Source: Psammoneis japonica (taxonomy: Eukaryota). Taken from it: a DNA stretch of 64,000 nt. Shown here piece after piece: positions 6,027-59,013 of this stretch. The stretch's first letter is position 1; each line of letters opens with the position of its first letter. The notes beneath the pieces were generated by a model, which was not told where the DNA came from, did no database searches, and was given only the letters and a program-made list of their open reading frames with translations. The stretch covers positions 248,001 through 312,000 of the forward strand of contig QPGO01000061.1 in assembly GCA_008632985.1 (NCBI GenBank). Reading direction: 5' to 3'. Both the position numbers and the translations under genes were made by a program.

Positions 6027-6029
6027 GCA

Positions 6030-20800: not shown

Positions 20801-21648
20801 ATGATGTGAGCGTTGCATCACCGCGACATAAAAAAAAACACATTCTCCACTTGCAAAGGGATGGCTGATGAGTTTGTCAGTTTGTTGCCCTGGGATGTTT
20901 GCAGTGCCCCGCTGATTGTGAACGCCTGCCCATCCCCCACTGACACTTCTGTCTGATGCCCAATTGCTCCCATCTGTGCATGCTCTGCTGCGGTGGCAGT
21001 GGCACATGCAGCAAAGCCCCCATTCTTCAAGTTGGCACTTTTCTTGTTGCTTTGGCACAATTGGGAATGCCTGCAACATTGCCATGGCAGAATCAACCTC
21101 ACCCCAAATCTGCGCACAAAAGATCCCAAAGAGCATGTGTGTTGTTTGCCATGTTGGGAAGATCTCTGTTTTGCTTCTTGTTGTCTGTTGCTTGTCATGT
21201 CTTTTCAGCTGTCCTCTTTCAATTGCTTCAAGAGAAAATGCTGACAGTGTCGGCAGATCAGCACGCAAGTTGAATCCAGTGCTTCCGTTCCTCAAATTCA
21301 ATGAAATGGAAACCCAGTTGCACAAGGACGGATTCAACGATGCCCGCCAGAAAGCTGTGGAGAATCCAGAAAACCGGCATGATCACAAGCGCTTTCAAAT
21401 TTTCAAGGAACTGGCCAGTTGCAGCAAGTTGGCATGTGTGGGAGGACCGTGTTGCACTGGCAAAAGCAAAATTGCTTGCGCAATCACCATTTTTCAGCAA
21501 GAGGACTGTGTCACATGCTTGATTGGTGGGAACAACCAGCGGGAATTTGAGTTGGATCTTCTGACAAAAAGACAAAATGCCAGATCCTGAGCGGCTCACA
21601 TTTCATTGCAAATGCTTGCATGGTGGAAATGGCGCCAAGCTTCTTTTC
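17810..21648. repeat. Degenerate TpA/CpG-depleted repeat-derived block
   Basis: Almost no TA or CG. A short segment at ~18570 (CAGATTTGGAACAAG.TCAACAAGC) recurs at ~34358. Confidence 0.6.
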
Positions 21649-21924
21649 TGATAGAAATTGAAGGCAAATGGCAAGAATTCAAACAATGACTCCTCACTGC
21701 TGTCTAAACAGCAGATGAGTCTCTGCTCAGAGACCATCACAGGAGCCGAAAGACGTGTGAGTCGGTGTGATCGGGCTACTGTCATCATTCTTGTGAGCCT
21801 TGTGGCTCGAAAGCAAACTACATCGCACGCGAACGCGCGGAACTAAAGCACACAAAACTGTGCACGGTGAGCTAAATGGCGTGCAACATTTCGCGCGCAC
21901 CCAAATCCTGTTCAAATCCTGTCA
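21649..21924 (-). repeat. 3' LTR
   Basis: TGATAGAAAT...CCTGTCA, colinear without gaps with 28451-28726. Confidence 0.95.
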
Positions 21925-21929
21925 CTCCC

Positions 21930-24900
21930 CAGTTTGCTTGAGGAGCCACAGAAACAGATTCGACTTTGGATGGAATGAAGTTCCAGAACATGAGGGGGCG
22001 GAGAAGGTCCCAGATTTGGGAGTGACCCCAATGCTTGCTGAGAATGTCAGCAGGGTTGCGGGAGCCTTCGATGAAGTGGAGCTCAAGGCAACCAGAGGCA
22101 ATTGCCTCATGCACACGGTGGAATGACAGTGCGGTGTGTCACTTGTGCAACTTGGAGTGCGGGATGGTGGCACTGTCTACAACTGACTTGTTGTCACCGA
22201 ACATGCAACTGACATTGCGGATCGGGACGCCAAGGCAGCGCAGGGTGATGCGCAGGTCGACAATCTGCTCGACACAAGTCCTTGCGGCAACAAATTCAGA
22301 CCCGCAGGTCGCAGTCTCCATGGTGGCTTGCTTCTTAGAGAACCAATCAGCCGGGAATTTGTTGAGGAAGTGGAGCATTCCCATGACAGAGCGTCCGGTG
22401 AGCATGCAATGGTGCAAGTTTGCATCGATGTAGTGGGTGGCAGTGACGAACTTGCCAAGGGGCGGTGGAGCGTCCTTCGGGACCATCTCTTCTGCTTCAC
22501 CGCACACGGAATGCATCCATTCATGGGCCGGAGCAGGGAGATCTGAGTGGTCGGGATCTTCCGTGCGAACGCGAAGAGCGCCATGTCGCATCTTGGAGAG
22601 GTGCCCACAGACGCGTTTGGCACGATCCAAGTGGCCTTGACGGGGTGCAGCTCGGAAGCTAGAGAGTGACATGACGGCCGTGGCAATGTCAATTCGACCA
22701 AGGGACACTGCCCATTGGAGTGAACCAACAAGAAACTGGAACTTGTGAATGCCATCGGGCCCCAGCAGTTCGGAAGTGTCCAGTTCGGGGTGGTCACCCT
22801 TCTCCAGAGGTGACAGGGCGTTGGTGGCAGGTTTCTCCCCAAACAGTCGGGCGCAGCTGTCGACCATGCACTCGATGCACTTGCGCGGAGACAGGCACAA
22901 GGTGCCGTCGGGATCCCGGGATAAGTCACAACCCAGATGGAACTCAATGGGTCCCGCACCCTTGAGCTTGAACTTGTGCTTTTCCGTGAGAGTGTCGACA
23001 AAAGATTGAGGGTCCTTCATGGCAATGGCGAGGTCATCCACATAAACGGCAATGTGTTCACAGTGGTCGCCGTTCCTGCGCATCCAAATGTCGGGTTCGG
23101 CGCGGCAGGGGAAGAAGCCTTCAGCTCGCAGGCAGTCGGCGAAGTGCTCGTGCCAGCGGAGACCGGAGCTGCGCAGTCCATGCATTTCCTTGTGGATGAC
23201 AAGGATGTGTCCTTCAAGTTTGCCAAATTCGGGTCCGGCTGCAATGTAGAGCTTCTCCTTGGTGGTGGCTTCAAGGTGGGCATTGCCAATGTTGGTGGCC
23301 CATGTCTCCAACTCGTTGAGTTTGGCCAGGAAAATCATCAGCCGAAGGCCATGGAGGGAGACCACTCCGGAGTAGACACTGTCGATGGGTGCGTCCGTGA
23401 GGTGCCCATCGGCTGCGAGTCGTGCCTTGTGGCGACCGTCATGTTTCACATCGCACACCAGGTGCACTCGGATCTTCTTGTGTCCCGCAGGAGGAGTGGA
23501 AGACTCGAAGGGCCCGCAGTCATGGAAGACTTCGCATTCCTCGAGTTGGTCCATCTCGAGATTAGTTGCGTCTCCCCATTTGCGGTTGCCGTTGTGTTCG
23601 TCTGGTGACATGGCGTGTTTGCAGTTCCGGGGAATTTCGTGTCCGCACTTGCAGCGAGGTGCAGTGCAGAAGGAGCGAAGCTTGGCTTGGTTGGCCATGC
23701 GAAATGGCTTCTTCTGGCGCCTCGCGATGGTGCGTCGGAACCGCTTCCAGCCATCAGTGTCGAGAAGTCCATTCTCTCGTGCATGGATGGCGCAGGTGAC
23801 GGGGTCGTCCTTGGCGATGATGGCAAGAGGCTCGGACGTGATCTCCCCACTTTCCCATTCAAGCACAATGTTGTAGCTTGAGCCTTTCCAGGTTGGGTCA
23901 TGAGGCTTCAGAGGTCCTTCGTGTGACACGATGCATCGAAATTTCCAAACAGCAGTGTCTTCGTCTTCTTGCTCAATGTGATTCATGATGTCGTTGCAGG
24001 CAAGGACTTCCTTGCATTCGTCATTGTTGACAGAGCAGACGAACCCAGTGAGCTCGGGATTGCCGTTCACTTTCCATTCGTGGTCTTCGATGGCCTTGAC
24101 GATGCGAGCTCTGTGGCGTTGTCCGTCCTCTTGTGGCTGCATGAGGAAGGTGCGTCCGATGATGTCTTGCGGATCGAAAACTGGCATCTTGGGTGTCCTG
24201 ATCTCCCCATCAGGAGAATCGACGGGGTTGTCGTCATGGCGAGATTTGATGATGGGTTCAGGTGGCTCCCCATCAGGAGGATCAAGATGCAGGTTTTGAA
24301 TGGCAGGATCGGTGGCAGCGGATCGTACGTTGGACCGGCAGAGGATCTTCTGTGTCTCGTCAGAGAGAATCTTGAAGGTCATCTGGTGGCCGACGTGCTC
24401 AGCAATGCCAACAAAGCGTCCACACAACTCACGGGATTCGGGCGGCCAATCGGAGTCATCGAGGTGGAAGTGCACGGGTTCCCACCAGTGAAAGCGAAGC
24501 AATGGGCTGATGTCCGGGGTGGAGCCAGTGAGAGTCTCGAGGGGCGTGCACCAGTGGAGACGCGGGGACGCTGTGTGGTTGAGTGTGAAGCACACGCACA
24601 TGAGCGCCAGCAGCCATGTGTGGGCAGGCGAACCGAAACAATCCATGACAGTGTTCGCCATGTGCTTCACGGTCTGGTGTCGACGCTCGGCAAAGTTTTG
24701 GTGTTGCTGGTGAGGCTCACTTTGCCAGCTGGAGATGAAGAGGGCTCGCAGGATCCCGAGCACCTTGTTGCTGATCTCAACTTGAGCACGGTCGCCAATG
24801 AGTTTGGATGGGGCACCACGCTCCCGGATCTGATCCTCGAGTGTGTTGACAAACTCTTTGTCTGTCTTGGTGCTGTAGACGTCAGTGACGGCAGACTCGG

Positions 24901-26719
24901 TGCCAACAAACAGTTGGGCGCTGGTGCAACCAGAGTCGACGGCCGGGGTGTCGGCATGAACGGTGTCAGTGGCGACAGGCTCATTGCGGCGGTGCACATT
25001 AAGGGCGGGGTTGGGTGATTTGCAGGCCTTCCTAAGGTGTGTGCCGGCGGGCATGCGGACGCACTGCGTGGTGCAGTCAAAAGTGCGACGGACCGCATCG
25101 GCAGGGAGGAAGCCAAAGCAAGGCCAAAGAGACTCGAAGGGGGGGTCCTTGGGCTGCACAGTGCGCTCCGGGGGCGGAACGTCGTCGTCCTTGGGGTCAA
25201 TCGCGTGCAGATGACACTCGCAGAACACGTCGTTGTTCGGAATGAGGTGATCATCGAGGGCGGACGCGTGATCGGCAGACAAGGAAGCGGACATGATGGT
25301 CTCGTTGACAACGACACGATGACGGCAGTTGCCGCATTCGTCAAATGGGTTGGCAGTGGGATCATCCTGCAGGTCAGAGATCGCGTCGCACCACTGGTCG
25401 TCATCAGTGACAGAGTGATCGAGGATGGAAGGATCCCATGTGTCATCACCGGTGAGGATGACATGGGGCAGGGTGTCCCATTCGGCATCAGTGCAAGGTC
25501 GCATGGCAACACAAGGCAGGCCGCCCTTGATGTCAATGGGGATGACACAGCCATCAGGAGTGGCAACACGTTGCAAGCCATTGGGCACCTTGACAGAGCG
25601 ATCGTTGACATCCTGTTTGCACCATTCGAGCTGGCCGCAGGAATGAATGGTCTTGCCCTTGCCCGTGTGTGTGCACTGATGGAGGATGGCGATGACAGGA
25701 CCACGCTGGGTCTCAATGACGGCACCAGCGGTGACAACAGGGATGTCCACCAATTGATGGTCGTCAATGCCCTGAACGTCGACTTGGCGAGAGGTGCGTG
25801 CAATGACGTGAACGTCGTCGCCAGCAATGCCGCCGTTGGCCCCACGATCGACTAGAGCACCAGTGCGTGTGGAGCGATGAGCAGAGGCAGAGCAAATGAC
25901 ATTGTGGTTGTCAACGCGGCGGTGAGTGCGGCCGTCAAGTTCCATGTCATTGGAAGGAGCTGGCGGAGCAGAGGGAGCGGCGGATGGCACCGGTCGACCA
26001 GCGTTGGGGGCTTGGTTAGGAGACAACAGACGTTGCAGATCACCGGGTGGCAGTGGCTTGCGCTTGGTGAGGTGCGCCAGGATGGGATCATCCAAAGTGG
26101 CACCCACATTTGGAGCGGGGTCACCAGAGTCAGCAGGAGTCGTGTTGGACAAGTTGACATCACCGTCGCTCCCAAGGCATTGGTCGTGAAGGTTGGCCGC
26201 AATGGACTCATGGCAGTTGCTGGCTCGCGGGTTGTGGGGAGGCGGACGAGAATGCTCAAGGATGATCACCTTGGAGGAATGGGGCAACGAATCCCAAATC
26301 TGTTGGTGGTCGGGAGGGAGACGTTTCCATTGGTCACCGGTGAGGCTGGGACCACGGGTGCAGGCAGCATTGGCCTGAAGGACGTCAATGTCACTGTCAA
26401 TGTCGTAGAACACATCGTCGGATGGTTCCTCGGAGCAGACGTCATGTGCGTGTGTGGCACGTTGGGGAGCTCGAGGTGTCGTCTTGGGTTGAAATGCACT
26501 GTCGCACTGAGCCGCCGCGGAGAGGAGCAAGCCACAGCATTGGTCGCATGTGAGGCTCTTGCCACTCTGCGTACGATGCTGATCAGCTTGGTTCTTGACA
26601 GCACGGAGTTCCTCGACAGGGTGTGCGGCATTCTCGAGCATGACGCGCTTCTGTCCTTCAGAGAAGTGGTCACTGGCCGGGATGAGTGCCTCGCACTTGC
26701 GCAACTCAGACCTTTCCAA
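21930..26719 (-). pseudogene. gag C-terminus plus pol (protease, integrase, RT, RNase H)
   Basis: 1526-aa ORF with LVDRGANGG, VATDT, SEPHQQHQNFAERR, DVKHDGRHKARL, YVDD, DANL and ETAT(C)GSEF. A nonsense TGA at 22139-22141 (KLHK*HTALSFH, expected R) is followed by NPADILSKHW. Confidence 0.93.
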
Positions 26720-27543
26720 GCACCATCACCAAGACGTGCGGTGGTGAGGTGCGTGAGCAAGGTGGAGGACTCGACAGATGCGTGGGTGGAGGCGAGCGCA
26801 TGCTCAGACAAGGCGCGGCAGACGGTCTGGGCGTCAGAAGACCCCACATTTTCGCGAATGAGAGCCTTGCCCTTGTCGGTGAGAAGAATGCGTTCGAAGA
26901 CGGCGAACATGCACTTTTGCTGTGCAGCAAAGAGCAGTTTGTCTTCGGGGCTGGTCGGTTTGTACGACGAGTCTAGAATGCACTCGACGTCTTGGGCATG
27001 GGCTTGTGCCACAAGTGAGGTGTGCCAAGTGTGCCACTGCTTGTCGGATTTGAGAGCCGTGAAAGTGGTGGGGTCACGCTTGATGCCTCGCTTGAAGTCT
27101 CGCACTGGGTCGCGTGCCTTGGTCGGGTTGGTGACATGCGGAGGTGCGAGGGGTGAGCTGCCGATGGACACAGAAGACATGTGGTCGGGGCTGAGGCGGC
27201 AGGCAAGGAACTCGTCATGCGTGAACAACGAGGAGTCATTGGCAATGTCAAGACCTTTGTGTGCTTTGACAATGCACAGACTAACTAGAGCTGCTAACAT
27301 GTTCTTATAACCACGGGGCAAAGGGATCACATTGGTGCCGTTGTCACACTCAAGCGAGTCGATTTGGGACGGCATGAACGTGAACAGTTCTTGATGCGAG
27401 TCCGTGCCGTCTTGGGCCAAAGCCGAACGAAGAGGGCTCCCAGCACCTTGGGCAAGCACGGTTCCAACAACGTGCTCGAAACCATCGGTTTGTGGCTGAC
27501 GAGTGAGAACCATGGCAGACAAAAGTGGTGTCAGGACAAGCAA
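26700..27543 (-). pseudogene. gag N-terminal part
   Basis: FKRGIKRDP, W..WH, Q.CMFAVF..IL.TDKGK and DAQ motifs typical of diatom copia gag. The frame changes near 26712. Confidence 0.8.
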
Positions 27544-28450
27544 TTCTTGTTGGGAAGTGAAGGTGGACTTGAAGCTTGGGTGAGAACAGACTTGACTTGA
27601 AATGGACTTGACTTGAAATCTTGAACTACCTTAAAATCAGAAGTCGCCAGGCTTTGCTGTCCCGTTCGTTGTCAAGTGCTAAACTTCCCATCCGGTCCGT
27701 AGAGTTGTGCCGGCACGTCCGAACCCGCAGCCAGCGGCGCTTTGGGTTGCTTGCGAGCGGAGCAGCGGGTTGTAAACCCCTGCAGGCAAGCTGACCAGAG
27801 GTGGACAAGACCCCCGAACCGTTCTTATTTTGTGTCGGTTGGATTTCCCGATCAGGCTGGCCAGTTGACGCAGGCGTTGGGCACTGTGGACGAACGAACA
27901 AACGCGGGAAAACACCCTTGCCCCAACGCAGGCTGCAATCACGGCTGCTTGCTCTCACAGTTGTCCTCATGGACCTGGCAGAACTGCAGAGCACCAGTGG
28001 TCCGGGGTGGATCAGGTGCAATGGACTCGGTGTGCTTGTGGAGTGGTGGCAAAACCGCAGTCCGAAGAGTGGGCACAAGTTCTTGGCCGTGAAGACATGC
28101 ACACATGCACATGTCTTCAGCAACGAAGACACTTGGACATGTGGGGTTCTTGACCGTCAACCGATGAATGGGCACATCGAGGGATGAGGATCAAGGACAG
28201 ACTTGGATGTGACCGTTGACGCATGTCTTCAGTGATCAAAGGTGGCACAATCAATCCAGACATCCAGCGGCAAGGAGACTTGACGGTGACGTTAAATTCC
28301 TGCCGATGCCTGGCATTGAACACGCGCAGACTTGCCGATGTGTGTAGAGTGCACATGGAGGTCCACGCAGAATTGAAGTGGCGTTGCCGGCAAATCAACG
28401 ACGACGATGGCGGTTGCTCAATGGGTTGACAATGAGCAAGACTGTCAATC

Positions 28451-28726
28451 TGATAGAAATTGAAGGCAAATGGCAAGAATTCAAACAATGACTCCTCACT
28501 GCTGTCTAAATGGCAGATGAGTCTCCACTCAGAGACCGTTGCAGGAGCCGAAAGATGTGCAAGTCAGTGTGGTTGGGCTGCTGTTGTCATTCTTGTGAGC
28601 CTTGTGGCTCGAAAGCAAACTGCATCGCGCACGAACGCGCGGAACCAAAGCACACAAAACTGTGCACGGTAAACTAAACAGCGCGCGACATTTCGCGTGC
28701 ACCCAAATCCTGTTCAAATCCTGTCA
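28451..28726 (-). repeat. 5' LTR
   Basis: Partner of 21649-21924, followed by TSD TTTTC. Confidence 0.95.
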
Positions 28727-31427: not shown

Positions 31428-31628
31428 CGACAAGACACGACACGACAAGACACGACACGACACGACAAGACACGACACGACACGACAAGACACGACAAGA
31501 CACGACACGACACGACATGTCACGACACGTCACGACACGTCACGACACGACACGTCACGACACGTCACGACACGTCACGACACGTCACGACACGTCACGA
31601 CACGTCACGACATGTCACGACACGACGA
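31428..31628 (+). repeat. Tandem array (CGACA/AGACA 5-mers, then ACGACACGTC 10-mers)
   Basis: Directly visible. Confidence 0.95.
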
Positions 31629-31970: not shown

Positions 31971-32086
31971 TGTCGGCGTTTGTCGGCTCTTGTCGGCTCT
32001 TGTCGGCGTTTGTCGTACATTGTCGGCATTTGTCGGGGTTTGTCGGGGTTTGTCGGGGTTTGTCGGGGTTTGTCGGGGTTTGTCGG
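31971..32086 (+). repeat. Tandem 10-mer array TGTCGGNNTT
   Basis: Directly visible, including consecutive TGTCGGGGTT units. Confidence 0.95.
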
Positions 32087-40800: not shown

Positions 40801-42940
40801 CGGTGGATGCACCAGCAAGTCTACATTGCGGTTTCAATTGGTTGCTGTTGTTGCCCTGTGCACTCTCACAAAGTGTTTTGCACTTCTTTGCAATGAACAA
40901 GGTGGATCAGAGCAGCGCTGCTTCACCTGGTCCAGAATCAGCTTCGTGGGGTCGGGAACCGGCGGCAGAAGTGACCAAATCTGCCACGGCGGATGCACCA
41001 GCAAGTCCACATTGCAGTTTCAATTGGTTGCTGTTGTTGTCCCATGCACTCTCACAAAGCATTTTTCACTTCTTTGCAATGATTTGCCATTGTGAACAGA
41101 GTGTGGCTCATTCAAAGGCATTGCATTTGGGTTGCTTGCTGTGTCTCAGTGTCAAGATTGCACTCTCAACTGCATTGATTTCTTGCATGGACAGCTCTTC
41201 TTCTTTTTTTTGGGTTTGAGAAGGTTGTGTCAGGGGAGGAGCGGCATTGGGTTGTGTCGTGTTTTGATTGCCAGCAGCATTGGCTGGGGGTTGCGTGCCA
41301 TGGTTTTTGGCTGCTCGGCTGCTTGGGTTGCTTCTGTGGCAGTGGAGCTTGCCTCTGCTTGCTCTTTTTGGGTGAGGGCATGCAGGCATCTTCTTCAAGG
41401 TGGAGTTGCCTTTTCACTTCCTTTGTTGCGACATGTTTGTGCATGCCAAGGCAGATGCAGAAGATCTTGAAGGACACCACGTTCTCCAGGCAATGCATGA
41501 GCCCACATCCTGCAAGGCGACAATGGGTCATTTTCGTCATGCCTTTTCCTTGCTCCATGTGGCAGTGCAAGTGGATTTCAAAGAGGTCCAAGCTTGCACT
41601 TACAAAGGCAGTGGTGCGTGCTCCTCTTTTGCTGCAGTGAGCTCTGGCTCCACCATTTTGTGCATCAGATTTGCACCTTTCTCTTGGAATTCAGTCATTG
41701 CCTCTTTGAATTCATTGACAAGCCTTTGTCTCTGTCTGCATCAAGCGCAAACAACAAAACAGAACGCATGCAACACAAATGATTTTAAGTTGCAGGTTTT
41801 GCAGCAGGAATGGAGGGTGGGCACTCTCACAGGGAAAATGGTTGGCTGTTTCACAGTGAATGGTGTTGCCTCACAGGACAGTGGTGGGCTCCACAGCAAT
41901 GAAGTTTGTCTTTCACAGTTAACAAATTGTCACCACGTGCACAACCAATGAGGTTTGAAACCACAAAATTTTTAACTGTGACAGATTAAAAAGTTCGCCA
42001 TGAGAAAGTCAGTCTGCTCACTGTGTTGCATGCTCTGATGTGGTTGAAACATGATGACAGTGGTTCACAGCATTGAGAATGCATTTGTGGCAAGCCACAT
42101 GGCAAGTTTGGGGTTGCAAGTTTTGCACAGAAGGAAAAACACAGATCAAGTGCTGGAAATGCAAGAGGTTGGGTGCGTGAAAAGCGCTGTCCTTTGCTCA
42201 ACATGATGACAATGATCACTCGTTGGTGGAGTCAGACAATGCTGGCCTGAGGAACAAGTGGAGCAGTTGAAGTGGCACTGAACAGCATGGTTTCCAAGTG
42301 TTGTTCTCCTGTGCTTCATGCACGTGAGGCTGATCAATTGACGGCTTGTGCTGAGTGCGAAGGAGAGCGTGTTGGGGGAGTTGGGACAATGGCATCAGGA
42401 AAGTGTTTGCAAGCCACATGGTGAGTTTGGGGTTGGTGAGACTAAGTGTGTGTCAGTTGGTGAGCCATGAAAATCTGACACTCATGATGATTTCTTGCTG
42501 AAAAGTGGCAGACAGAAAAAACTTTTTGAAAGATTGTGTGTGCGCCAACAAGTGCAGCCGCCCTGTGCCATGCTGCACAGGAGTGTGTCTTTTCCCAGAT
42601 TTCAAGCTCATGCTCTGCTTTTGCAAGAAAGCACATCAAATGAATTGATTGAGAGTAGACTGACAAAAAGGGTCAACATGGCCTCCTGAAAAAGTGGCTG
42701 CAACCATCTCAGTCACGCGCTGTGTGTGTCGACAGAGGACTTGTTTCCCGCCTGAGCTGGGAGGGGATCTGATGGGAGAAACACACTGCTTTCTGCTGCT
42801 ACTACCTCAGAGAAAGTTGGCAACAATGGCGTCCATGATGACATGCACCAGGAACAACATCAAGATCGTTTCGAACGGACAGCCCTTTCTCTGGATTGAC
42901 ATCGTGTTGATGACTTTTTTGAAAATTTGCCTCTTCATGA
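37870..42940. repeat. Degenerate TpA/CpG-depleted block
   Basis: Near absence of TA, with internal tandem duplications. Confidence 0.6.
40577..41081 (+). repeat. 186-bp tandem repeat, ~2.7 copies
   Basis: Units start at 40577, 40763 and 40949 (GGGT..GGAACCGGC.GCAGAAG). Confidence 0.9.
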
Positions 42941-46892: not shown

Positions 46893-47231
46893 GAAAGTGT
46901 GGAACATGTTGCGAGACGATTTTTGTAGTAGCAGGCAGTGATTATTTGCGATGCGCAGTAGTTTAGTTTTTCGTAAGCTCTTCATAATAACCTTACTAGA
47001 GAATATTAGAATAGGACGACCACGATGACAAAGCGCTAGCTCTCTACTATTAGCTAGCTAGCTACTATGATAGAGTAGAGCCAGCCGTAGTAGATAGTAA
47101 TAGCATCAGGAGGTGTGTCGTGTGCGCGTTTTCGACGATGAGGTGCGCGGCCTTCTGGTTGCTGCATATTGCTCTGTGGCTTGCTGTTACTGCTGTTACT
47201 CGTATTGTTGTTGTTGCTACAAAAGGAAAGC

Positions 47232-48002
47232 ATGAACGAGGTTGCTGCACTGGTCAGAAAAGCGATTGCATGGAGATTCTCCATAGCATGTCTTGTCGCG
47301 TTTGTTCTTTTGGTTCAATTCAATGCCTGCAGTCTAGATCGCATCAGAAATTCCAATAAGAAAGTAACAGCAAAAGTCATACCCAGAGGCGTTGTATCCA
47401 ATGCATTGCAAGAAGAGAAAAAGGCGCAAGATTTTCCTCGTAAAAATTGGATCAATGTTTTGAATCGAGCATCACTCCGCCGCGGAGCCGAAGTGGGAGT
47501 CTGGAAGGGTGAATTTTCGGAACTCGTACTCAAGGGCTGTCCGTCGATTACGGAATACATGTTGGTCGATCCGTGGGCACATTTGGATGATTGGAACAAA
47601 CCCTTTAATGTCGAGCAAAAGGAATTTGACAGCATTTACGATTTGGCCATGATTCGGACCAAGAACCATCCACAACACGGAAGCAAGGTGACGGTGCTGC
47701 GGGGACGATCGCGACAAGTGGCTCCTCGCGTCGAGGACGAATCGCTCGATTTTGTGTACATTGATGGCGATCATACCCTCAAGGGGGCTGTGATTGACAT
47801 GACCTTGTGGTATCCCAAAGTCAAGGTGGGTGGATTGGTTTTTGGAGATGATTTTGCAGAGGAAGAAACGGAAAAGACACAGGATACGCCAACCATGGTA
47901 AAGCCCGTGGTTCTTGCTTTTGCAGAAGCAGTTGGTGCTACTGTGTTTGACATGGGAGGACGACAGTGGGGTTTTGAAAAGCCACCCCCCTTTGGCAAGT
48001 GA
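47232..48002 (+). CDS. Class I SAM-dependent methyltransferase (Methyltransf_24-like) with N-terminal anchor
   Basis: GAEVGVWKG, LVDPW, LDFVYIDGDH and KVGGLVFGDDF motifs. Start codon uncertain. Confidence 0.85.
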   Translation: MNEVAALVRKAIAWRFSIACLVAFVLLVQFNACSLDRIRNSNKKVTAKVIPRGVVSNALQEEKKAQDFPRKNWINVLNRASLRRGAEVGVWKGEFSELVLKGCPSITEYMLVDPWAHLDDWNKPFNVEQKEFDSIYDLAMIRTKNHPQHGSKVTVLRGRSRQVAPRVEDESLDFVYIDGDHTLKGAVIDMTLWYPKVKVGGLVFGDDFAEEETEKTQDTPTMVKPVVLAFAEAVGATVFDMGGRQWGFEKPPPFGK

Positions 48003-48643
48003 TTAGAGTAACCAAACAACAAACAAACACGACCAAGTATAAAGTCTAGATCAACAATGGCATACAGTTGAATCTGCAGTAGCATTATGGAGGTCATGGC
48101 GTTAACAAACACCAACGGAAGCAAATATCCACCAACTTTAACTTGATGAAAAGAAGGGAGTATGTGGGGGCGGTTAATACATATTGAGTTCAATTAAGGT
48201 TGAGCACGGAGGGCACAGTAGTGGATCTCAGAGCTGCAAGACTGTACAGACGAGAAGGCCGCTCGCCGCATCCTGTCCAAAGTGCCTGCCTTTAAGGTTC
48301 AGATTGGTCAGTTTGAAGTGGAACTGCAATGTACAGAATGGGAATCAGTGGATGATTTTGAGTTTCAAAAGTGAAAATGACCTGGCTGTCGTATTGGAAG
48401 GCTTGCGTTGGCGTTGAGCGAGAGAGTGAGCAAGCCTCTGCTTTGGAGCACGGTTCCCAGTGCTTGTGGATGTCACGGCTTCTCAGACTCCTTACTGGTT
48501 AGCAGATAACTTCTGTGGTAGATTCATACATTCAATCCCTCGTTCGTACTGCATGTGAAGGAATGTAGTTTGGTAGCCCATGTGTTTAAGTCCTACAGGT
48601 AACCTCAAAGAAAAAAGGACGGACTACCTTATAAGGTGTGAAA

Positions 48644-51455
48644 CTAAGATATCGGAGCGCCCACGAGACTGGCACAAGAGCATGGACCCGCGGATGATAG
48701 AATAACCTTGTCTTCCCACATGGCCTCACCACTCTCACCGGTTTTGAGTTGTTTCGACACGGCATCCCACGTTTTGCGCTTTTTCACTTGTTTAGAAGAA
48801 AAAGTCTCTCCAGTCAAGCCCTCAATATAGACGCGCTCTCCAACGACGGCACCATCTGGCGGGGTCACCAAAAACACTTTTTTGTCCGTCTTAGCGGCAA
48901 GAACCATGCCGTTGCTGCTGAAGCCAAGAATCTTGTAGGCTTCCAAATTACACACCACCAAGACAAGTTTGTCTTGCATCTCATCCAACTCGTAGTGACC
49001 TCGCAAACCAGAAACAATCTGGCGAGGACCCGTTTCTTCCCCAACATCAATTTCCTCACAGTAGAGCTTGTCGGCTTCGGGATGTTCCCATACCTTGTTA
49101 ATCTTACCCACGCGAATATCCATTTTGGTAAATTCTGCTTGATCGCTTTGACCAGCCTTGCTAGCGGCAATGGCCTTGGCTTTCTTTTGCTTTTTCTTTT
49201 GCTGTGCTTCCGCAAGAGACAAGGCTTTCTTCTTGGCGGCTTCTTCAGCATCGAGACGCTCTTCTTCCGAAAGGAGCTTGGTATACAGCACATCACCGAC
49301 CTGAACCTTGACTCCCACCACCAAATTACGTTGTCCCTGCAACTCTGCCAAGCTCACAGGAGCCGTGCCTAATTTACGGAATATCTCGCTTGCGCCCGTT
49401 GGCACAAAGGGCAAGAGGAAATGGGTGAGTGCATATAAATTGCTTCGAGTGTGGCTCGCACCACGATACGACGCGCCTCGGCATGTTCATCGCCCTTTTT
49501 CAACCACGGAGCTTCCTTGGTCAGATAGCCATTGACATCCCGAAAGCTCTGAATGGCAATCGTGGCACCCGCCTCTAGTTCAAAATTGTCCATCTTGTGA
49601 CTATACGACTCAATCACGGCACCCAAGTCGACGGGCAATTCTTGCGGAGCAGGCACGTCGGGAACAAGGCCGTCGCAACACTTGTTGCAAAGGTTGGTTG
49701 CCTGGTGAACCAAGTTGCCAAGCACATCACAAAGATCTGAATTGTGCATGTCATGCAGTGAATCCTCATCAAAGGATAATTCTCTGCCATGCGGAGCTTC
49801 CTTGCACAATCACCTGATTGAAAATGGTGTGAGTGTGACAAAATGGCAATGCCAAGCAATCACACACCAACAGCACTTGCCTCCTCACCAGGACATTTAT
49901 CCAGCATGTCGCGAGGATCCACAATGTTGCCCAAGCTCATGGACATTTTCTTTCCCTTGCTGTCATTGATGACCCATGTGCGAACACCATCTTGGGCAGT
50001 GGGACACCCGCAGACATTGACAGATGCGGCCAAATGATGGCATGGAACCAAAGGATGTCCTTTCCAACAATGTGCACATTGGCGGGCCAAAACCTCTTCA
50101 AGTCGACTCCCTCCTCCAATCCAAAGTGATCGACACCAGTCAGACAGTTGGACAGCACATCCACCCACACATGCATGACGTGATTGTCATCAAAGCCCTC
50201 TGGAACAGGAGTGCCCCATTCAAAACTTGTCCATGAAACACTCAAATCAAGAAGCTCATCTTGAGCGAGATGGAACAAGATGTGGTTTCGATGGGTCTGA
50301 GGATGAACAAAGTCCGGACTGGCTTCAATGCACTTGACCAAACGACCATGACAGGCAGACATTTTGAAAAAGCAACTCTCTTCTTCCACCTGTTTGAGCG
50401 GTGCTCCAGATGTTTTGTCCTTGCAGTCCGAGAGCTGTGCTTCCGAATCCGTGACAAAGGTTTCTTCACAGACATTGCACCAACCCTTGCAGTGATGAAG
50501 GCAAATGTCACCCTTGTCCGCAACATGCTTCCACAATTCCTTGGTGGTGTGTTTGTGATGATCTGACGTGGTGCAGATGCAATCATCATTGGAAATCAAA
50601 GTGCATTGATTCAAACACTGAAAGCCAGCCACGTGCTGAAAAAAGAAATTGAAGAACACTCAAGTCAAAATCACAGCGCTCACATCATGCACCTGGGACG
50701 CGTTCCAGCCCTAGGTGGGACTCCGTGTGACATTGGGCCCGTAGAATTCTACGTGCGAGCTCCGTAGTACGAGAATTTAATTAATGGATATATTTATCTT
50801 CAACATCAAATAAACGGCAAAGTTTGTGGTACAATTATGCATCTTACCACTCGACGTTTTTGCAATTGCACCTGCCCTACGCGATCTTAAGACAGTATAG
50901 AATCGCGCTGTAACAAAATGTCAAAGTTTTTGGACGGATCGCTCAATAAGTGTACCGTAAAATGACACAAAATATCAAAAAATCACGTAGAATTCTACGT
51001 GCGCGACATACGACGAGATTCAAAAAACTATCGATGTCACAGTTCAGTAGTACGAGGTCCCACCTAGACCTGGAACACGTCCTGGGACAATCACAACAGA
51101 GCACAAAAGCACACCTGACTGCAGAGATCAACAGGTTCCTTTCCTTCTCCGGCAGCCGTGTTGGCAATCTTTTGTCCGTGTTCATCGGAACCCATGACAA
51201 AACACGTGCCGTTGGTGCCCTTGAGACGTGCAAAGTGGGCCAAGGCATCAGTTGTGGCGGCTTGCATGCATGACCCATGTGATCAGGACCATTGGCACAG
51301 TTGATGGCCGCAGCAATGCAGAAGGCATCTTCACTGCCACCAGGCTGTTTGCCACCTGCCTTGGCACTGCAACCACAATCAATCATCTCCTCATCCTTGA
51401 CGGTGAAACAATCGTAAGATTCTGATTTCTCCTCTGCTGCTGTGTTGTTGCTCAT
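48644..51455 (-). pseudogene. MARS: Methionyl-tRNA synthetase pseudogene with C-terminal tRNA-binding (EMAPII/Trbp111-like) domain
   Basis: HMGH (HIGH) motif, GSDEHGQKIA, GKDILWFH, KMSMSLGN (KMSKS), DIRVG..HPEADKLY..RQIVSGL. Frameshifts and Tyr->Cys/His substitutions are present, and a MITE sits inside intron ~50636-51114. Confidence 0.9.
50697..51081. mobile_element. MITE with GACGYGTTCCAG..CTAGGTGGGA TIRs, 4-bp TSD CTGG
   Basis: TIRs at both ends and CTGG at 50693-50696 and 51082-51085. Related to 56741-57136 in opposite orientation. Confidence 0.9.
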
Positions 51456-52299
51456 GGTTCTTGCTTGTTTGTGCCCTCTCTCTTTGGCACTCTTGGAAAA
51501 TTTATGAGGTGTGACTGTCGGTTCACAAACGGAAGCAACCTCGCATGCAATTTTGCCATGGGTGAGGTGCTGAGTCACCAGCATGTGGGACTCACCACTT
51601 CATGTTTGCGCACACTTGACTCAGCCCTGGGCCCTCATTTTTCTTCAAGGAAAACCCCGCAATGCTGCTCATGAAAACACCAGTGGCACACATGCTTCAC
51701 TGGTCAAAAAGACATTTCTGTCCAATGGCACCAAGCAGGCAGCATTTCTGGTGACTTTTTTAACACAGAAATGTTGCAACTTTGCTTTGCATCAAAGTCA
51801 TGCTCGTGTGGTGCAACAAAGCACTGGAAGACTCATGATCTTGTCATCATTGTCAGAGAGTTGAAGCAGCACAGCATTGTCATGGTGAGGTGCTCTCATG
51901 ACAACCACAAATGCATGTTCCTTTTGCAGCTGCAAGTTCAACAGCAATGCTCCATGTTTCATGCAATGCAGAGCATCCATTTTCAGTGGTGGCGCTGCAG
52001 AGACAGCACACAGCAGTGAGCTGCTGACGTGCATCTCATTCCTTGCTGTCTGTCAACTGTGTGTAGAGCTTCAATGCAGAAATGTTGCAAGAGGGATCTT
52101 CTGAGCTTTGCATCAAACACAAGCTTGTGCCATGTGACAAATGCAAAAAGACATCTCAAGCGCCAATTGTGGAAGTTGAGCAAACACAAGGTTGCACTTG
52201 CAAATGAGAACAGACAATCCCGTGGCTGTTTCATGTCACACTGGGATGGTTCAACAATGGGACAAACAACACAAGCATCATTTGCAGCTTTGTCACCAG

Positions 52300-53500
52300 C
52301 AAACCAACAATGATTGTGTCTGAGATTTTCTGTCATGCTGCAAAAGTGCGGGGCACCAGGACAGCTGCTTGGAATTTTGAATGGGTCATCACCAAAATCT
52401 GACAAGCAATGCTGCCCACTCTGTCAAGCTCCAAAAAAGACCAACAGGCTGCATCTTTGTCTGTGACTTTCACCACCCCAAGCTGCACTCCACCTTGATT
52501 GACAGCGCAACTTCACCACTGCCTGCGGAATCAACCCAACCAATGTCACATTGGACTCATTTGAAAAGTCACATGAAACCAGATCGTGCACCTGCGCAGC
52601 AACACAATGTGATTCCAAAACACCTGAAGTTGCTGTTGCTAAAGTTCTGCACCATGGCAAGGTGTTCACCCACCAATTGCAGACCAAGCCTGCATCCAGC
52701 CCCAGCAGACCTCCTGCCAAAATGCCCCAGATTTTGAAGATGTGCACCAATGTGCTGCTTTTCACATTGACAGCACCCAACAGAAACAAGACACTGTTTC
52801 TTCACCAACTGCACATGATGCGCTGCACCACCACACCCATTGATCTACCTTCTGATGACTCAGCAGCAGCAGCGGCACCAACTTGCAACCCCACCCAGTC
52901 TCTTTGTGTCGCAACAGAGCACCTCTTGTGGCACTGATGTCTGGGACACCCCAGCAACCCCTGCCTTTGCAAGGCCTGCAAGTGCGTTAAAAGAGCACCC
53001 ACTTTTGCCCACAAGAGAACCCCATCCTCAATGCATGCCCTGCACACATTCAACAGGTGAAACAAGTCAAGAATCCCACTTGACCCAACAACACTCAAAA
53101 TGCCACACAACATGCAACCCCACCAAGGACTCATCGTTGACTTTGCACCCACTGGATGGTCTTCCAAAATTGCTGAATGAGCTGCAGACTGTGTTGGTGT
53201 GAATGGAGAAACATGTTGAACCATGCAGTTTGTGATCATTGCACACACATGCTCCATGAAAGGGAGCCAGTTGAATTGGCTTCAGTGATTCCTGCACCAG
53301 CATTTCCCAAATTGTTGGGACAAACATGCAGTTGTGGACCAAGGTGGCAAGCTGTGCCAAAACCCCAAGGTTTGCAAACTCTTTGAAGACAATTTTGAAC
53401 TTGTGCTGTTTTGGTGCTGGTGCCTCCAACCAATGTGGGCCGGTTGAACACACACACCTCAGGCTCAAAATGGAGTTCACACGCTCCTCATCTGAGCCAA
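52300..53500 (-). mobile_element. Highly degenerate Ty3/gypsy-like RT relic
   Basis: Fragments ACIEDG (YIDD-like), KRCSVATQRDWVG (KCEW..ETDWLG-like) and LGAVN appear in the expected order. TpA/CpG-depleted. Confidence 0.4.
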
Positions 53501-55002
53501 CCTCCTGATCTGTTTTTGGCCTCATGACTTTGACCTTTTCATCTGCACATCAAGAAAGCCACACCATCTCAAGACCAAGAAGCAGCTCCTGTCACCAAGA
53601 AAACTGGCAAACAAGAGGACTTTTTCAATGCTGCAAACTTTTGGATGCTGAGCACAGATTTGCCTGCCTGGCTGCCACAAAGCTGAAGTCAAGACCAACT
53701 CAAAGGGGGGCACTCTGCTTGGACATCTCCCCAATGCTGACATGTGCCTTTGGGTTCACCAGGCACTGAGTTGAGTGTCTAGATTGCTGACCACAACTGA
53801 GTGTTTGTTGCTCACTTTTGTCTTGGTCGTGCGCTGTCATTTGGCCACCCCATTTCTCTTGAGTTCTCTTGTCACGTGTCAAGCACATTGCTTTGCATGA
53901 ATTTGAGTTGAGAGTTGAAAGGAGAGTCTTTGGGAAAACAAGACATTGTGCCTTGTGCTCAAATGCAATTGCAAGAACAACACTCATCAAGGTTCAGATT
54001 GATCGCTCGCATTGTTGTCAACATTTGACCATTTCCTCCTGAGGGGCTGCAAAAGACTGCATCTTGCATTTGATTCTGACATTTTGCACATTCAAAGCAC
54101 GCAGTCATTGTTCAAAGACGCGCTTCTTAAAAGATCAATTTTGCACTGAAGCACGTCTAAATTAAATGCAAAACAACAAAGATGCTCAGTTTGGGGCAGC
54201 AGACACATCAGGTGCAGATGCTGGGTCATCTTGCTGGCATGAAACATCAGTTAGGGCCCAATTGATCCTGTGAAACAGGGCAAAGTCATCACAAAAATTG
54301 GTCCACTGCTGCACAGCCAGAGCTCCACACATTTTGGTCCATCTGTCGCCAGTTTGTGCCAACATGTTGAGGGAAATGAACAAGGAGGCCAGAGTGTCCA
54401 TGTCCCAATTGACAAATCATCTGAGACAAAAAAACAATGTCTGCTCCTCATGCAGAGCAACAAGAGACAACAACAAAGCACATGGTGGCTCGCAAACACA
54501 GTTGTTGAAGAGGCAGACCAACTGAGTCTTGTGTGATTTTTTAATTTTTCATTTCCAATGAATGCAAAAACACATTCGTTGGGAGGAAACTGTCAATGGG
54601 ATTCTGACCAAGATTTGTGTTCAGTGGTTGATTCGATTTGACAGGATTTGAGTGGGATTTGCTCTGTGCGTGATTTTCTTGAGTGCTGTTTTGGTGTGTG
54701 TCACCCACAGGTTTGTGTGCTTTTAGCTCCTTGCACTCTTGCAAGAAGCAGCTTTGCTTTCCAGCCACCCAGATTGCAAGAATGATGACAAAGGCCCAAA
54801 TTCATGATGCATGTCCATCGGCTCCTGCAACAGTCTCTCTGCACCGAGGCTCATCTGCCATTTGGACAGCAGCAAGGAGCGTCATTTTCTTCCACCCCAT
54901 TTTGTCTTCTTTGTTTTCTGTCATGACTCTTGTTTTTGAAACATTTGTGTCCTCTCCTTGCTTTTCACTGTGATGTTGTCTCACAAAAAGTTGTGCCTTT
55001 AA

Positions 55003-55449
55003 CACCGCATCCACGGATTCACCAGGCAACACTCGGGTACGGCAAAAAGTGTGCATTTGGTCAAAATCGATTGTTGAGTGCAAATGGTGGTATCTTTAGG
55101 GTCCCTTTAGTGAGCCGATGACGCACATTTCTCATCTGACCATCACAGGTCGTCTTACGGGGGATGTCAAAACGTCGTGCTTTAATGTGTGAATTTTCAA
55201 TTTTATATAACCTTAATGGCTGAATACATTATATAACGATTAATCCTCGAGACGCGTCAAAGCACGACGTTTTGACACCCCCCATAAGACGGACCTGTGA
55301 TGGTCAAATGAGAAATGTGCGTGTTCGGCTCACTAAAGAGACCCTAAAGACACCACCATTTGCACTCAATGATCGATTTTGACCAAATGCACACTTTTTG
55401 CCACACCCGACTTTTGCCAATTTTGCCTGGTGAATCCGTGGATGCGGTG
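55003..55449. mobile_element. piggyBac-like MITE with ~180-bp inverted arms
   Basis: CACCGCATCC...GGATGCGGTG flanked by TTAA (54999-55002, 55450-55453). Arms at ~55003-55184 and ~55259-55449. Confidence 0.85.
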
Positions 55450-56740
55450 TTAAAACTTTGTGAAGATCCTCTGCAACATCTGCAATTGCACATTGTCTTG
55501 TCATGGCTTTTGAAAGATTCAAAAGTGCACAGAGCCGTTGTTTCTTGCTCCTTTGTGCTGTTGGACTTCAGCAGCATGGGGGGTGTTGACTGTGCCCAAA
55601 ACAGCACTGTGGAGTGAAACAGGCCTCCACAAGAAGTGAGCACTGCTCCCTTTGATGTGGGTGCCTTTTTTGAGGCACTTCATGCTTGGCAAGAAGATGT
55701 GTGTGCCATGCTTTGGTCACAGGATCCAGCAGATGGAGCACCAACTCCAAGAGCTGCAGCTTGCATCAGCTCTGGTGAGTGGGAGATGGCAAAGCTGTCA
55801 CTTCCCTTTCTTGTCTGTCTTCCACTGCTTGTTCTGGTGGGGTGGGGGGCAGTGTGGGGCTGTCTTCAAAATCTGTGGCTCCCATGGTGTGCCGCTGGCT
55901 TTGAACATGCTGTTTTCTGCTCTGAGCTGCAGAGGGGTGCTGTCTCATGCAAAAGGATGTGGAGTTTTGTGTGCTTGATGATGAGTGGAAAACCAGGGTT
56001 GTTTGTGCACTCAGAGAAAGTGTGCTCTGGCAGCAAGTGGGAGAAAAGCATGTGTGCTCATGTGCCAGCTCCCATGGTGCCACTTGGTTTTGAGCACACC
56101 AACTTCTGCTCCAAGTGGTTGTGAGTCCATGCACCTTTCTTTGCATGTCCCCAGGTTCAAGGCATCCCAACTTCCAACCTTTTCTTTTCTTTGAGGTGCT
56201 CACCCAGCACATGTGTGTGCTCTTGTGCACACATGACAGATGTCATGCTGACACAGCATGTGTGCACCCTTGCACTCAATCAAGGGGCAACACTTCCCCA
56301 GCCAGAAGAGTGGCATGGAGTTTGGCCACTGTGTGTGGAATGATGAGTGGAAAGCCAAGGTTTGCTCATTCAGAAAGTGTGCTCTGGTGGCAGAGCCATT
56401 GGGAGAAAAGCAGCATGCAAGCACAATGCACGCCAGCTCTCAATGTGTCGCGCTGGCTTTTGGCTCACTGATTTCTGCTCTGAGCAAGCACTGGGGATTG
56501 GCCTTGCACATGTTGAGACCATGTGTCATGTCACACCCACCATTGATGGCGACACACTCTCATTTTTTGCCAGGACATTTTGATGACTGCCACAGTGTCT
56601 CAAACTTGGGCACGGAGGTTGATTTTTTGCAAAAAAAAAAAAGGCAGCACCTGCACGATTTCTGTGGCGTCCCCACCCACAACAACAGCGAAACCCAGCG
56701 CAAAGGCAACAAATGCACATGGTGTGTGGGGGGCGTCTCC

Positions 56741-57136
56741 GACGCGTTCCAGTCCTAGGTGGGAGCTCGTAGTACTGACGTGTGACAACAATAATTTTTA
56801 TCATCCGTCGTATGTTTCGTACGTAGATTTCTACGTGTGATGTTTAAAAAAAATTGTCCAGACTCGCTGTTTTGCGAAGCCCCAGACGTTTTATATAACA
56901 AATTTATAGAAACAATAATGCGCCAGTTACATTCTTCAATGTCTGAAGAATGTAACTGGCTAAGTAAAAAATGATGTACTTCAATCATGTGCGAGTTTGT
57001 GCGTTCGCAAAATTGCCTCATTTTCTGTTGGCGATCATTGACATTTTAATTACCGTATAATTTTACTACGGAGCTCGCACGTAGAAGTCTACGGGCCCAA
57101 TGTCACACGGATTCCCACCTACGTCTGGAACGCGTC
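56741..57136. mobile_element. MITE with GACGCGTTCCAG TIRs, 4-bp TSD CTCC
   Basis: CTCC at 56737-56740 and 57137-57140. 57064-57122 is the near-exact reverse complement of 50711-50769. Confidence 0.9.
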
Positions 57137-57504
57137 CTCCATCTGTCCAGTGCTGGCCATAGAATCTTGTGTGTGGGGCCCTCTCTCTACTGGCAGCTAG
57201 CTAGCCACTGCTGGCTAGCTGCTGGTGCTAGCTCTGCTGGCAGTAGAGCAGAGTGGGAGCCACGGCGGGCGACAGGCAGGTGGCGTGGTGCGTGCGTGGC
57301 TGGTTGGTTGGTTGGCGCGTCTGTACTTCCCCACTACAGCTCAAATCGCGCTCTCGCGTCCATACCGCGTCCACACAAAAAATGCAAGGCAGAGCCGCTA
57401 AAGCTAACACCCAGCCCACATTGAGGTATCAAGAAGAGGCAACGAAAACACACGAAACGCCACTATACACCCTTTTTTTTTGCTTTTGCATCACACAATA
57501 TACC

Positions 57505-57876
57505 ATGCCAAAGGTAGAAAAGAAAAAGCGACGACAAGAGACAAAGAAAAAAGAAAGCGGAGGCATGGATGAAATTGATAAACTCTTTCAAGACAAGAAG
57601 GAAAAGGAAATAATACAGAAACAAAAACAAAAACAACAAAAGAAGAAACAACAGAAACGAACTACTAAATTGGAATACAATCGCAACGATTTAAAGCAGA
57701 TCCAATCATCCTCTCAATGGATGGACGATGGTTTGGGTGGTAAATTCAATCACGAGGGTTATACGGGACGGGAGCTCAAGGATGGGACCAAGGTGTACAA
57801 GGCACACTTGTTTAACAAACCCAATTTTGGCAATACCAAGGACTGTCCATTCGATTGTAATTGTTGTTTTATTTAG
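57505..57876 (+). CDS. DUF1764-family small basic protein
   Basis: EIDKLF, Lys-rich middle, DG..VY and C-terminal GNTKDCPFDCNCCF. Confidence 0.85.
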   Translation: MPKVEKKKRRQETKKKESGGMDEIDKLFQDKKEKEIIQKQKQKQQKKKQQKRTTKLEYNRNDLKQIQSSSQWMDDGLGGKFNHEGYTGRELKDGTKVYKAHLFNKPNFGNTKDCPFDCNCCFI

Positions 57877-57879
57877 AGT

Positions 57880-59013
<1,134 letters not shown>

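Follow-up and report, generated by a model that had tools for sequence, protein, structure and literature searches.

In a window of 64,000 bp of nuclear DNA from the diatom Psammoneis japonica (contig QPGO01000061.1, positions 248,001-312,000; all positions below are window coordinates), a minus-strand copy of the gene for the cytosolic methionyl-tRNA synthetase (MetRS) was found to be a pseudogene in which two thirds of the sequence, counted from the 5' end, have been stripped of TpA and, in part, of CpG. The explanation which we consider probable is a dead, redundant paralogue lying across the edge of a silenced domain, in which TpA was converted in situ to TpG or CpA by deamination of adenine in the context 5'-TAY-3', with CpG decay added to it, the process being targeted by position. 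With such positional targeting, promoter, introns and exons 1 and 2 are all rewritten, and only the final 1 kb of the gene is left untouched.

The density of TpA is normal from the stop codon at 48644 up to 49602/49604, and between 49604 and 50711 only the TpA at 49777 and 49898 are left. For the 1443 bp of gene sequence within the depleted domain (a miniature inverted-repeat transposable element, MITE, in intron 1 being excluded), three TpA (49777, 49898 and 51415) were counted versus about 60.8 expected from the normal rate of the window, i.e., 1153 TpA per 27,375 bp (Poisson, P = 1.6e-22). The protein-level consequences were determined by aligning the six frame pieces of the window gene with the first 40 diatom MetRS among 86 hits of 740-900 residues, drawn from 120 listed. 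Columns were scored when they had a consensus of at least 70% and a residue in the window (489 columns); those above 49620 are referred to as the 5' part (285 conserved columns) and those below as the 3' part (204 columns). None of the 14 conserved Tyr is retained in the 5' part (11 Cys, 3 His), versus all four in the 3' part (P = 3e-4). Of the conserved Arg, 2/12 are left in the 5' part versus 8/9 in the 3' part (P = 0.002); those lost from the 5' part read 4 Cys, 3 His, 1 Trp, 1 Gln and 1 Leu, so that changes of the CpG-decay type (Cys, His, Trp or Gln) account for nine of the 12 conserved Arg. Five Thr to Ala changes are present in the 5' part, four of them immediately 3' of a T.

The window copy mismatches the consensus at 24.2% of the 5' columns versus 10.3% of the 3' columns, whereas the orthologues themselves show a mean of 5.8% (maximum 11.6%) in the 5' part and of 8.2% (maximum 17.2%) in the 3' part. 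Among invariant columns, 32/146 (5') versus 2/74 (3') are altered. Changes of TA to TG/CA or of CG to TG/CA alone explain 44 of 69 mismatches in the 5' part versus 2 of 21 in the 3' part (P = 1e-5), and the mismatches remaining after their removal are alike in both parts (25/285 versus 19/204; P = 0.87). The 5' part is therefore composed of normal divergence plus a context-specific layer, and the direction of change is from TA to TG or CA. An earlier reading, made from the sequence only, had described hypermutated Tyr, Arg and Thr codons and missing TpA in the 5' two-thirds, with normal TpA and Tyr toward the stop codon. This description is confirmed, and all five peptides quoted for it were found in the minus-strand translation.

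The same reading had seen a gradient along the gene, but TpA and CpG loss both set in as a step at 49605-49700. This interval still contains nine CpG (observed-to-expected ratio, o/e, 1.15), whereas the CpG o/e is 0.39 from 49701 onwards; the first inferred mutated codons or sites past the boundary are at 49704, 49725 and 49791. The boundary in MetRS is thus resolved to less than 100 bp. Two chemically different losses having one border within 100 bp is the pattern which the edge of a chromatin domain would give. Two-state segmentation of the TpA density across the window placed the gene in a continuous depleted domain of 7.1 kb, which is interrupted by two TpA-normal MITEs only. Followed from the 3' third of the gene into the block upstream of it, the CpG o/e is 0.89, then 0.39-0.44 within the gene, where the loss is merely partial, 0.19-0.21 beyond it, and finally 0.08 further upstream. 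This second step in CpG loss fits an older silenced block from which silencing later spread into the spare gene.

The identity of the gene is given by Pfam matches of its pieces to tRNA-synt_1g, Anticodon_3 and tRNA_bind. With its C-terminal 280 residues, 451 proteins were found at E ≤ 0.001 (8000 candidates scored) with a top identity of 68%, and diatoms made up nine of the ten organism-named hits. When diatom MetRS was used in tblastn, six pieces in the frames -3, -2, -1, -3, -2 and -1 were required to cover the gene, and no further MetRS copy was detected within the 64-kb window. A continuous frame with intact HIGH and KMSKS motifs, as in a functional class I MetRS, is absent. The KMSKS loop reads KMSMS owing to a Lys to Met change at 49940 in a column which is invariant among the orthologues. 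Around 49810-49889, seven codons conserved in the orthologues are gone (a 7-column gap relative to the consensus), and three-frame translation of this segment shows an in-frame TGA just ahead of exon 3. As predicted from the sequence alone, introns are retained (50636-51114 and about 49810-49889).

Contigs from three sequencing runs of one sample (X1, X2 and X3) were placed on 47000-58000; the X1 contigs were assembled from exact 31-letter words. Both the frameshift at 49973 and that at ~51264-51267 are shared by X1, a DNA run, and the X1 depth showing the indels which a second copy has at these two sites (see below) is 0. The frameshift at 49433 may be an assembly error. With two X1-supported frameshifts, seven lost codons and KMSMS, the window copy is a pseudogene.

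A frame-intact second copy of MetRS is present in the same sample, and the earlier assumption that the gene is redundant holds. A 2545-nt contig of X2 spans the whole gene minus both introns: it omits 50635-51121 and joins 49809 to 49889 with 20 letters in between. Frame is restored in this contig at all three window frameshifts (49973, ~51264-51267 and 49433), by an extra T behind 49973 and, at ~51264-51267, by one letter fewer and two more than in the window. Its difference from the window is 7.0% (89/1271) in the 3' part, 10.6% (79/746) in exon 2 and 12.6% (53/419) in exon 1. The contig appears to be transcript-derived, since most non-genic DNA is uncovered in X2 and X1 contains no intron-less joint; an intron-less gene copy would be the alternative. 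X2 coverage is absent on 51771-53605 and most of 54340-56541, and no contig identical to the window copy was seen among the X2 contigs listed, neither of which says anything on expression. Three contig types of similar depth are present in X1 over 48.6-49.1 kb, versus one type for the neighbouring gene, which hints at a paralogue at another locus instead of an allele. The third type also covers the 3' third and is ~16% different from the window.

The 3' third is drifting as well, by ordinary changes only. Among the differences listed for 48671-49111, 27 codons differ between window and second copy (13 synonymous, 14 non-synonymous), and at sites which 80% or more of the orthologues have in common the window copy has the derived residue five times and the second copy once. 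The idea that the 3' third has been kept as a stand-alone tRNA-binding protein was considered and is weak, being partly contradicted by these same numbers.

The further copies bear on a mutator triggered by duplication, similar to the repeat-induced point mutation (RIP) of fungi, which would mark no more than the sequence present in duplicate at the time of its action. The gene is indeed duplicated, with at least two other copy types in X1, and a Copia element, a repeat by nature, is hit elsewhere in the window. However, the unmutated 3' third is duplicated too (differences of 7.0% and ~16%), which also speaks against the earlier suggestion that only the duplicated part of the gene is marked. 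RIP damages both copies, but here the second copy is frame-intact and matches the ortholog consensus at five of the six well-conserved sites which differ. Direct repeats of 1.46 kb with 88% identity (4566-6026 and 8385-9835) are TpA-normal, and the depleted block next to the gene occurs once in the window and has, for the most part, a near single-copy depth. Finally, the direction is opposite, as fungal RIP creates TpA. We regard a duplication-triggered mutator as improbable.

An artefact would be a different matter: modified bases could have been miscalled in a long-read assembly, TA and CG being written as TG or CA, or a chimeric contig could switch between copies at 49.6 kb. Window and X1 differ mostly by small gaps (14 gaps and 6 letters in 47000-48050), as is seen in long-read assemblies; the 49433 frameshift is absent from X1; and no read spanning 49.6 kb is visible among the rows listed. 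On the other hand, the 3.3 kb of depleted DNA at 51151-54482 are reproduced in an X1 contig of 3335 nt, from which they differ by 4 letters and 3 gaps, and X1 bears out the frameshifts at 49973 and ~51264. The 3' third is 7% and 16% different from the other known copies and has not been borrowed from them; a haplotype switch between known copies, named in the sequence-only reading as a possible refutation, is thus unlikely. Neither would miscalls yield lost codons, a Lys to Met change or nested unmutated MITEs, and the depletion extends over 35.1 kb of the window with sharp edges. An artefact of either kind is very improbable.

Depletion of TpA is by no means restricted to MetRS. In the segmentation, 35,100 of the 64,000 bp (54.8%) were assigned to the depleted state in ten segments with sharp edges. 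These segments have a TpA o/e of 0.01-0.06 and a CA+TG o/e of 1.66-1.88, and the normal segments a TpA o/e of 0.47-0.63 and a CpG o/e of ~0.9-1.0. The DNA hit comprises the Copia element, Copia remnants, the host gene copy and a 5-kb block without a recognisable family.

The Copia element, which is young, is informative for the timing. Nearly all of its TpA is lost and its CpG o/e is still ~0.86; TpA and CpG processes are thus separable. The Tyr content of its polyprotein is 0.46%, versus a median of 3.89% and a minimum of 3.03% among 120 listed relatives; none of these 120 is Tyr-poor, and they give no sign of the process elsewhere. In comparison with 30 relatives longer than 1800 amino acids (aa), taken from the 120 listed, 39 conserved Tyr columns read 21 Cys, 9 His, 6 Tyr and 3 Phe, and conserved Arg is retained in 42 of 49 columns. 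According to the genetic code, a change of TA to TG or CA makes no stop codon and removes TAA and TAG, hence the frame of the element stays open. Dead elements hypermutated in this way will look intact to gene callers.

Between the two long terminal repeats (LTRs) of the element, 278 positions were compared and 27 differ, in each case by a transition. These differences correspond to 21 events, 19 of them at TA or CG: nine CG versus TG/CA, six CA-versus-TG doublets, four TA versus TG/CA and two others. No transversion and no indel was found in the pair, and in the purine/pyrimidine (R/Y) alphabet, which was used for a transition-blind self-comparison of the whole window, their identity is 100% over 284 nt. 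LTRs are identical at integration and these have since diverged by such changes; mutation therefore occurs in the chromosome after integration. Hypermutation was fast relative to ordinary mutation and ran ahead of CpG decay.

The same observations decide on hyper-editing of RNA by an ADAR-like enzyme (A to I), fixed in the genome through reverse transcription of a retro-copy. A to G changes with a 5' U are the classical look of hyper-editing, and Copia passes through RNA. However, both introns, the non-transcribed DNA upstream and 5 kb beyond are equally depleted, the LTRs diverged only afterwards, and the depleted tract ends in the middle of an exon. To our knowledge, ADAR enzymes are restricted to animals. 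RNA editing is the least credible of the explanations weighed here, and the mutation is genomic and not due to a retro-copy, as had been argued from the introns alone.

Three analyses point to 5'-TAY-3' as the target, with A changed to G on the strand showing this context. First, the surviving TpA are biased: YTAR makes up 71/138 in depleted DNA versus 196/1152 in normal DNA (P = 1e-17), and ATAN and NTAT are nearly absent among the survivors of depleted DNA. Second, 44 conserved Tyr codons are mutated (14 in MetRS, 30 in Copia); after a pyrimidine they became Cys 20 times and His three times, after a purine Cys 12 times and His nine times. This split is the one expected if the opposite strand is targeted only when it has its own +1 pyrimidine. 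Third, the tetranucleotides YTGY+RCAR gained 19.3 per kb versus 10.5 per kb for YCAY+RTGR, the matching losses being 20.2 TpA and 12.6 CpG per kb. Two other rules were tried and rejected. A rule with adenine at -2 for the surviving contexts predicts His after a pyrimidine, but Cys was found in 20/23 cases. An asymmetry by transcription or replication strand was not apparent, as CA versus TG per domain showed no consistent bias (P = 0.0068 to 0.88), and the local +1 rule is preferred.

An invariant U33 precedes A34, the base on which tRNA adenine deaminases act, and this fits a 5' T. With thymine as the altered base, 5'-R-T*-A would be an equally valid way of writing the context rule. In this alternative, the process is also domain-limited and in situ, and its chemistry differs: thymine in R-T-A would be modified, e.g., to 5-hydroxymethyluracil by a JBP/TET-like enzyme, and mispair with G, or heterochromatin would be subject to error-prone repair. 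TpA being self-complementary, A to G on one strand is T to C on the other, and the context rule fits. Nothing in the window favours thymine chemistry over adenine deamination, however, and for the sole measured precedent an ADAT2-like adenine deaminase is proposed in the main text of the preprint describing it (see below). We consider the thymine variant unlikely, and the most probable among the alternatives.

Upstream of the gene, the depleted domain continues into a block in which an LTR-like fragment is the sole recognisable transposon remnant; tblastn with three Copia polyproteins gave no match in this block. The two MITEs within the domain are themselves TpA-normal. The one in intron 1 has 30 TpA in 375 bp (all within 50712-51065; o/e 0.96) and a CpG o/e of 1.5, with a summed X1 depth of ~148,000. 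The palindromic one is probably on one haplotype only, as an X1 contig skipping 54999-55453 has a depth of 35.9 versus ~66 alongside. MITEs in the domain are younger than the hypermutation or exempt from it, and being unmutated, a MITE cannot be the source of the mutator, contrary to one of the origins proposed earlier. The other proposed origin, spread from the adjacent repeat block, fared better: spread is the best reading, given one continuous domain and CpG decay which is deeper upstream (0.19-0.21 versus 0.39-0.44), and the qualification concerns the word "repeat" (see below).

Table 1. Features of the MetRS locus and of the Copia element in the window (LTR, long terminal repeat; MITE, miniature inverted-repeat transposable element; o/e, observed-to-expected ratio).
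Feature	Position	Strand	Characteristics
Cytosolic-type methionyl-tRNA synthetase pseudogene	48644..51455	-	Catalytic core, anticodon-binding domain, C-terminal tRNA-binding (EMAPII-like) domain
Exon 3 and stop codon	48644..49809	-	Unmutated below ~49605; frame broken near 49433 by a 2-nt insertion
Intron 2 or lesion	49810..49889	-	79 nt versus 20 in the second copy
Exon 2	49890..50635	-	Hypermutated; 1-nt deletion at 49973; KMSKS loop reads KMSMS
Intron 1, 479 nt	50636..51114	-	GT..AG borders fit the ortholog alignment; own sequence TpA-free; contains a MITE
Exon 1	51115..51455	-	ATG at 51455; one TpA (51415); frameshift at ~51264-51267 just past the HIGH-motif region
Left domain boundary	49605..49700		TpA and CpG loss step together
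TpA- and CpG-depleted domain, 7.1 kb	49626..56750		TpA o/e 0.01-0.05, CpG o/e 0.21-0.48, CA+TG o/e 1.76-1.88
MITE in intron 1, 387 bp	50696..51082		31-nt terminal inverted repeats; second arm copy at 57064-57137; high-copy
LTR-like fragment, 181 nt	54706..54886		74% and 71% identity to the two Copia LTRs; sole recognisable transposon remnant in the block
Palindromic MITE	54998..55454		Perfect 32-nt terminal inverted repeats, 127-nt arms; TpA-normal
High-copy TpA-normal repeat	56756..57137		Shares the MITE arm; at the present right edge of the domain; summed X1 depth 27,000-75,000
Copia LTR retrotransposon	21647..28726	-	LTRs at 21647-21924 and 28449-28726; RVT_2 in an open 1528-aa frame

In the mechanism which we propose, the spare MetRS copy would straddle the left border of a chromatin domain of 7.1 kb that has been silenced. 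Within the domain, chromosomal DNA would undergo a near-complete conversion of TpA to TpG or CpA by an enzyme which deaminates adenine in 5'-T-A-Y-3' on either strand, the resulting inosine being read as G. A slower decay of CpG to TpG or CpA, as from cytosine methylation, would be superimposed. Targeting would depend on position, i.e., on lying within the silenced domain, irrespective of gene, repeat family or duplication, and the silenced state would have spread from the older upstream block into the spare gene copy. The deaminase chemistry, the basis of the domain in chromatin or methylation and the order of events, with silencing moving into the gene, we infer from patterns in the DNA.

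Several points weigh against this proposal. The change of A:T to G:C at the palindromic TpA is the same for adenine deamination and for a change of thymine, and the two are indistinguishable by it. The rule of the +1 pyrimidine has exceptions: Tyr codons with a preceding G and T in third position became His in 3/3 cases, a purine is at +1 in two of the four single TA events which separate the LTRs, and the test on Tyr outcomes reaches P = 0.04 only. At 25 of the 69 mismatched conserved sites in the 5' part, the context offers no explanation. The direction of change was deduced from protein orthologues and from the 32 listed differences between the coding sequence and the X2 contig, out of ~250 in X2. 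X1 possibly stems from the same sample as the window assembly and is then not fully independent, and the sole X1 contig at 49433 lacks the 2-nt insertion. Last, the adjacent block is not demonstrably a repeat. None of the 13 open reading frames (ORFs) which it has in 51.6-56.8 kb, counting those of 110 aa or longer, reached the Pfam cut-off (one matched Pox_A14 at 20.3 bits, below the cut-off of 27.7), no look-alike was found elsewhere in the window even in the R/Y alphabet, and most of the block is near single-copy depth in X1. Its origin from a transposon is based on the 181-nt LTR-like piece and the nested MITEs.

A number of further observations were made in the window. Two MITE families are present inside or at the edge of the MetRS domain, and every copy of them is TpA-normal; the half-depth empty-site contig suggests a very recent heterozygous insertion of the palindromic MITE. 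All listed pieces of X3, a very small run of 0.36 million letters with contigs 58-222 nt long, fall on MITE copies, at 50726-51076 and 56761-57091, and this library might be small-RNA or otherwise repeat-enriched. The TpA-normal 1.46-kb direct repeats have ORFs without a Pfam family and flank a wholly TpA-depleted block at 6001-8050; they could be LTRs of an element mutated only inside, or a tandem duplication holding a depleted insertion. In another depleted segment, at 40138-41082, tandem repeats of ~186 nt have an identity of 84-87%, which rises to 95-98% when transitions are ignored; they have thus diverged almost only by transitions of the TA/CG type. The region 1-4200 is partly depleted (TpA o/e 0.13, CpG o/e 0.74), has long open frames and contains a diverged Copia-like remnant (tblastn, 693-1910, ~26% identity); the process may be seen here at an intermediate or at an older stage. 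A TpA-normal, AT-rich island (30576-31300; GC 0.36, CpG o/e 1.55) lies between two depleted segments, and 31001-32000 combines 99 CpG (o/e 1.56) with low TpA.

A TpA-directed mutator of silent DNA has been reported once before, in a rhizarian alga, in a 2026 preprint whose main text gives neither an established enzyme nor a targeting rule. To this, the MetRS locus adds a host gene of known ancestral state, which proves the direction from TA to TG/CA and shows saturation, a border within an exon common to TpA and CpG loss, which argues for targeting by chromatin domain and not by sequence family, duplication or transcript, and TAY as a candidate strand-specific motif. The MetRS copy is of value in that it provides a natural control for the direction, the timing and the targeting of the process. 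Under a wider and more doubtful conjecture (see below), the process would be a defence which irreversibly erases transposons within a short time and without making stop codons, the dead elements keeping their long frames; it would kill any host gene into which a silenced domain spreads, and would rewrite more than half of some genome regions. Should the process be general in diatoms, it would alter the reading of transposon load, gene loss and base composition in these genomes, affect gene callers through long Tyr-free open frames, and contribute to efforts to find DNA adenine deaminases in nature. Literature searches yielded no account of TpA-directed hypermutation from diatoms.

Among known systems, fungal RIP resembles the process in being an irreversible mutational defence with a dinucleotide signature on transposons, in which spill-over kills adjacent genes; RIP reportedly leaks into adjoining single-copy genes, e.g., avirulence genes of Leptosphaeria maculans. 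In contrast to RIP, which changes C to T at CpA and makes TpA, TpA is destroyed here and CpA and TpG are gained. RIP also depends on a duplicate and mutates both members of the pair, but at MetRS neither the second copy nor the 3' third, itself duplicated, was affected. The decay of 5-methylcytosine in transposons resembles the change of CG to TG/CA in depleted DNA (CpG o/e 0.08-0.48), but CpG changes cover only the smaller part of all changes. The enzymes TadA and ADAT2-ADAT3 deaminate an adenine following U or T (A34 after U33), which matches the obligatory 5' T, and the anticodon loop of the Arg ACG tRNA is broadly compatible with a preference for a +1 pyrimidine. We know of no chromatin-directed DNA activity shown for this family in any alga. 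Activity of TadA and ADAT2-ADAT3 on DNA has been reported, as summarised in the main text of the preprint mentioned above (10.64898/2026.01.13.699255).

The closest likeness is with the hypermutation described in that preprint for mutation-accumulation lines of Bigelowiella natans (Mettrop et al., bioRxiv, 10.64898/2026.01.13.699255), in which defined regions acquire de novo changes of A to G or T to C at TpA only. According to its main text, two integrated viral regions accumulated 231 mutations, of which all but one (230) were A to G or T to C, and these are stated to lie on TpA throughout; the rate in the two regions was ~1000x background, hypermutation occurred in some lines only, and an ADAT2-like deaminase was proposed (10.64898/2026.01.13.699255). 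In B. natans as in P. japonica, TpA alone is hit and becomes TpG or CpA depending on the strand, the regions measure tens of kb or less, and the DNA is silent, in P. japonica presumably so. In addition, genes for reverse transcriptase and transposase are over-represented in the TpA-poor, CA/TG-rich clusters of the preprint. The differences are that B. natans is a rhizarian and the lineage here a diatom stramenopile, that TpA loss is saturated here (o/e 0.01-0.06, versus 0.45 in the viral region given in the preprint), and that the process here occupies 55% of the window, shares its borders with CpG decay and has reached the copy of a host housekeeping gene. The preference for a +1 pyrimidine comes from the present data; the words "trinucleotide", "flanking" and "diatom" are absent from the main text of the preprint. 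The unmutated young MITEs would indirectly fit an episodic process, as in B. natans. The changes found here are transitions only (27/27 in the LTR pair, CpG transitions included), target TpA and lie in delimited regions; the case is an event of the B. natans kind in a separate lineage. We tentatively suggest, as a conjecture more doubtful than the reading of the locus itself, that diatoms carry a chromatin-domain-directed defence by DNA adenine deamination with a 5'-TAY target, of the same kind as that of the chlorarachniophyte and possibly old and widespread in the stramenopiles, alveolates and Rhizaria (SAR).

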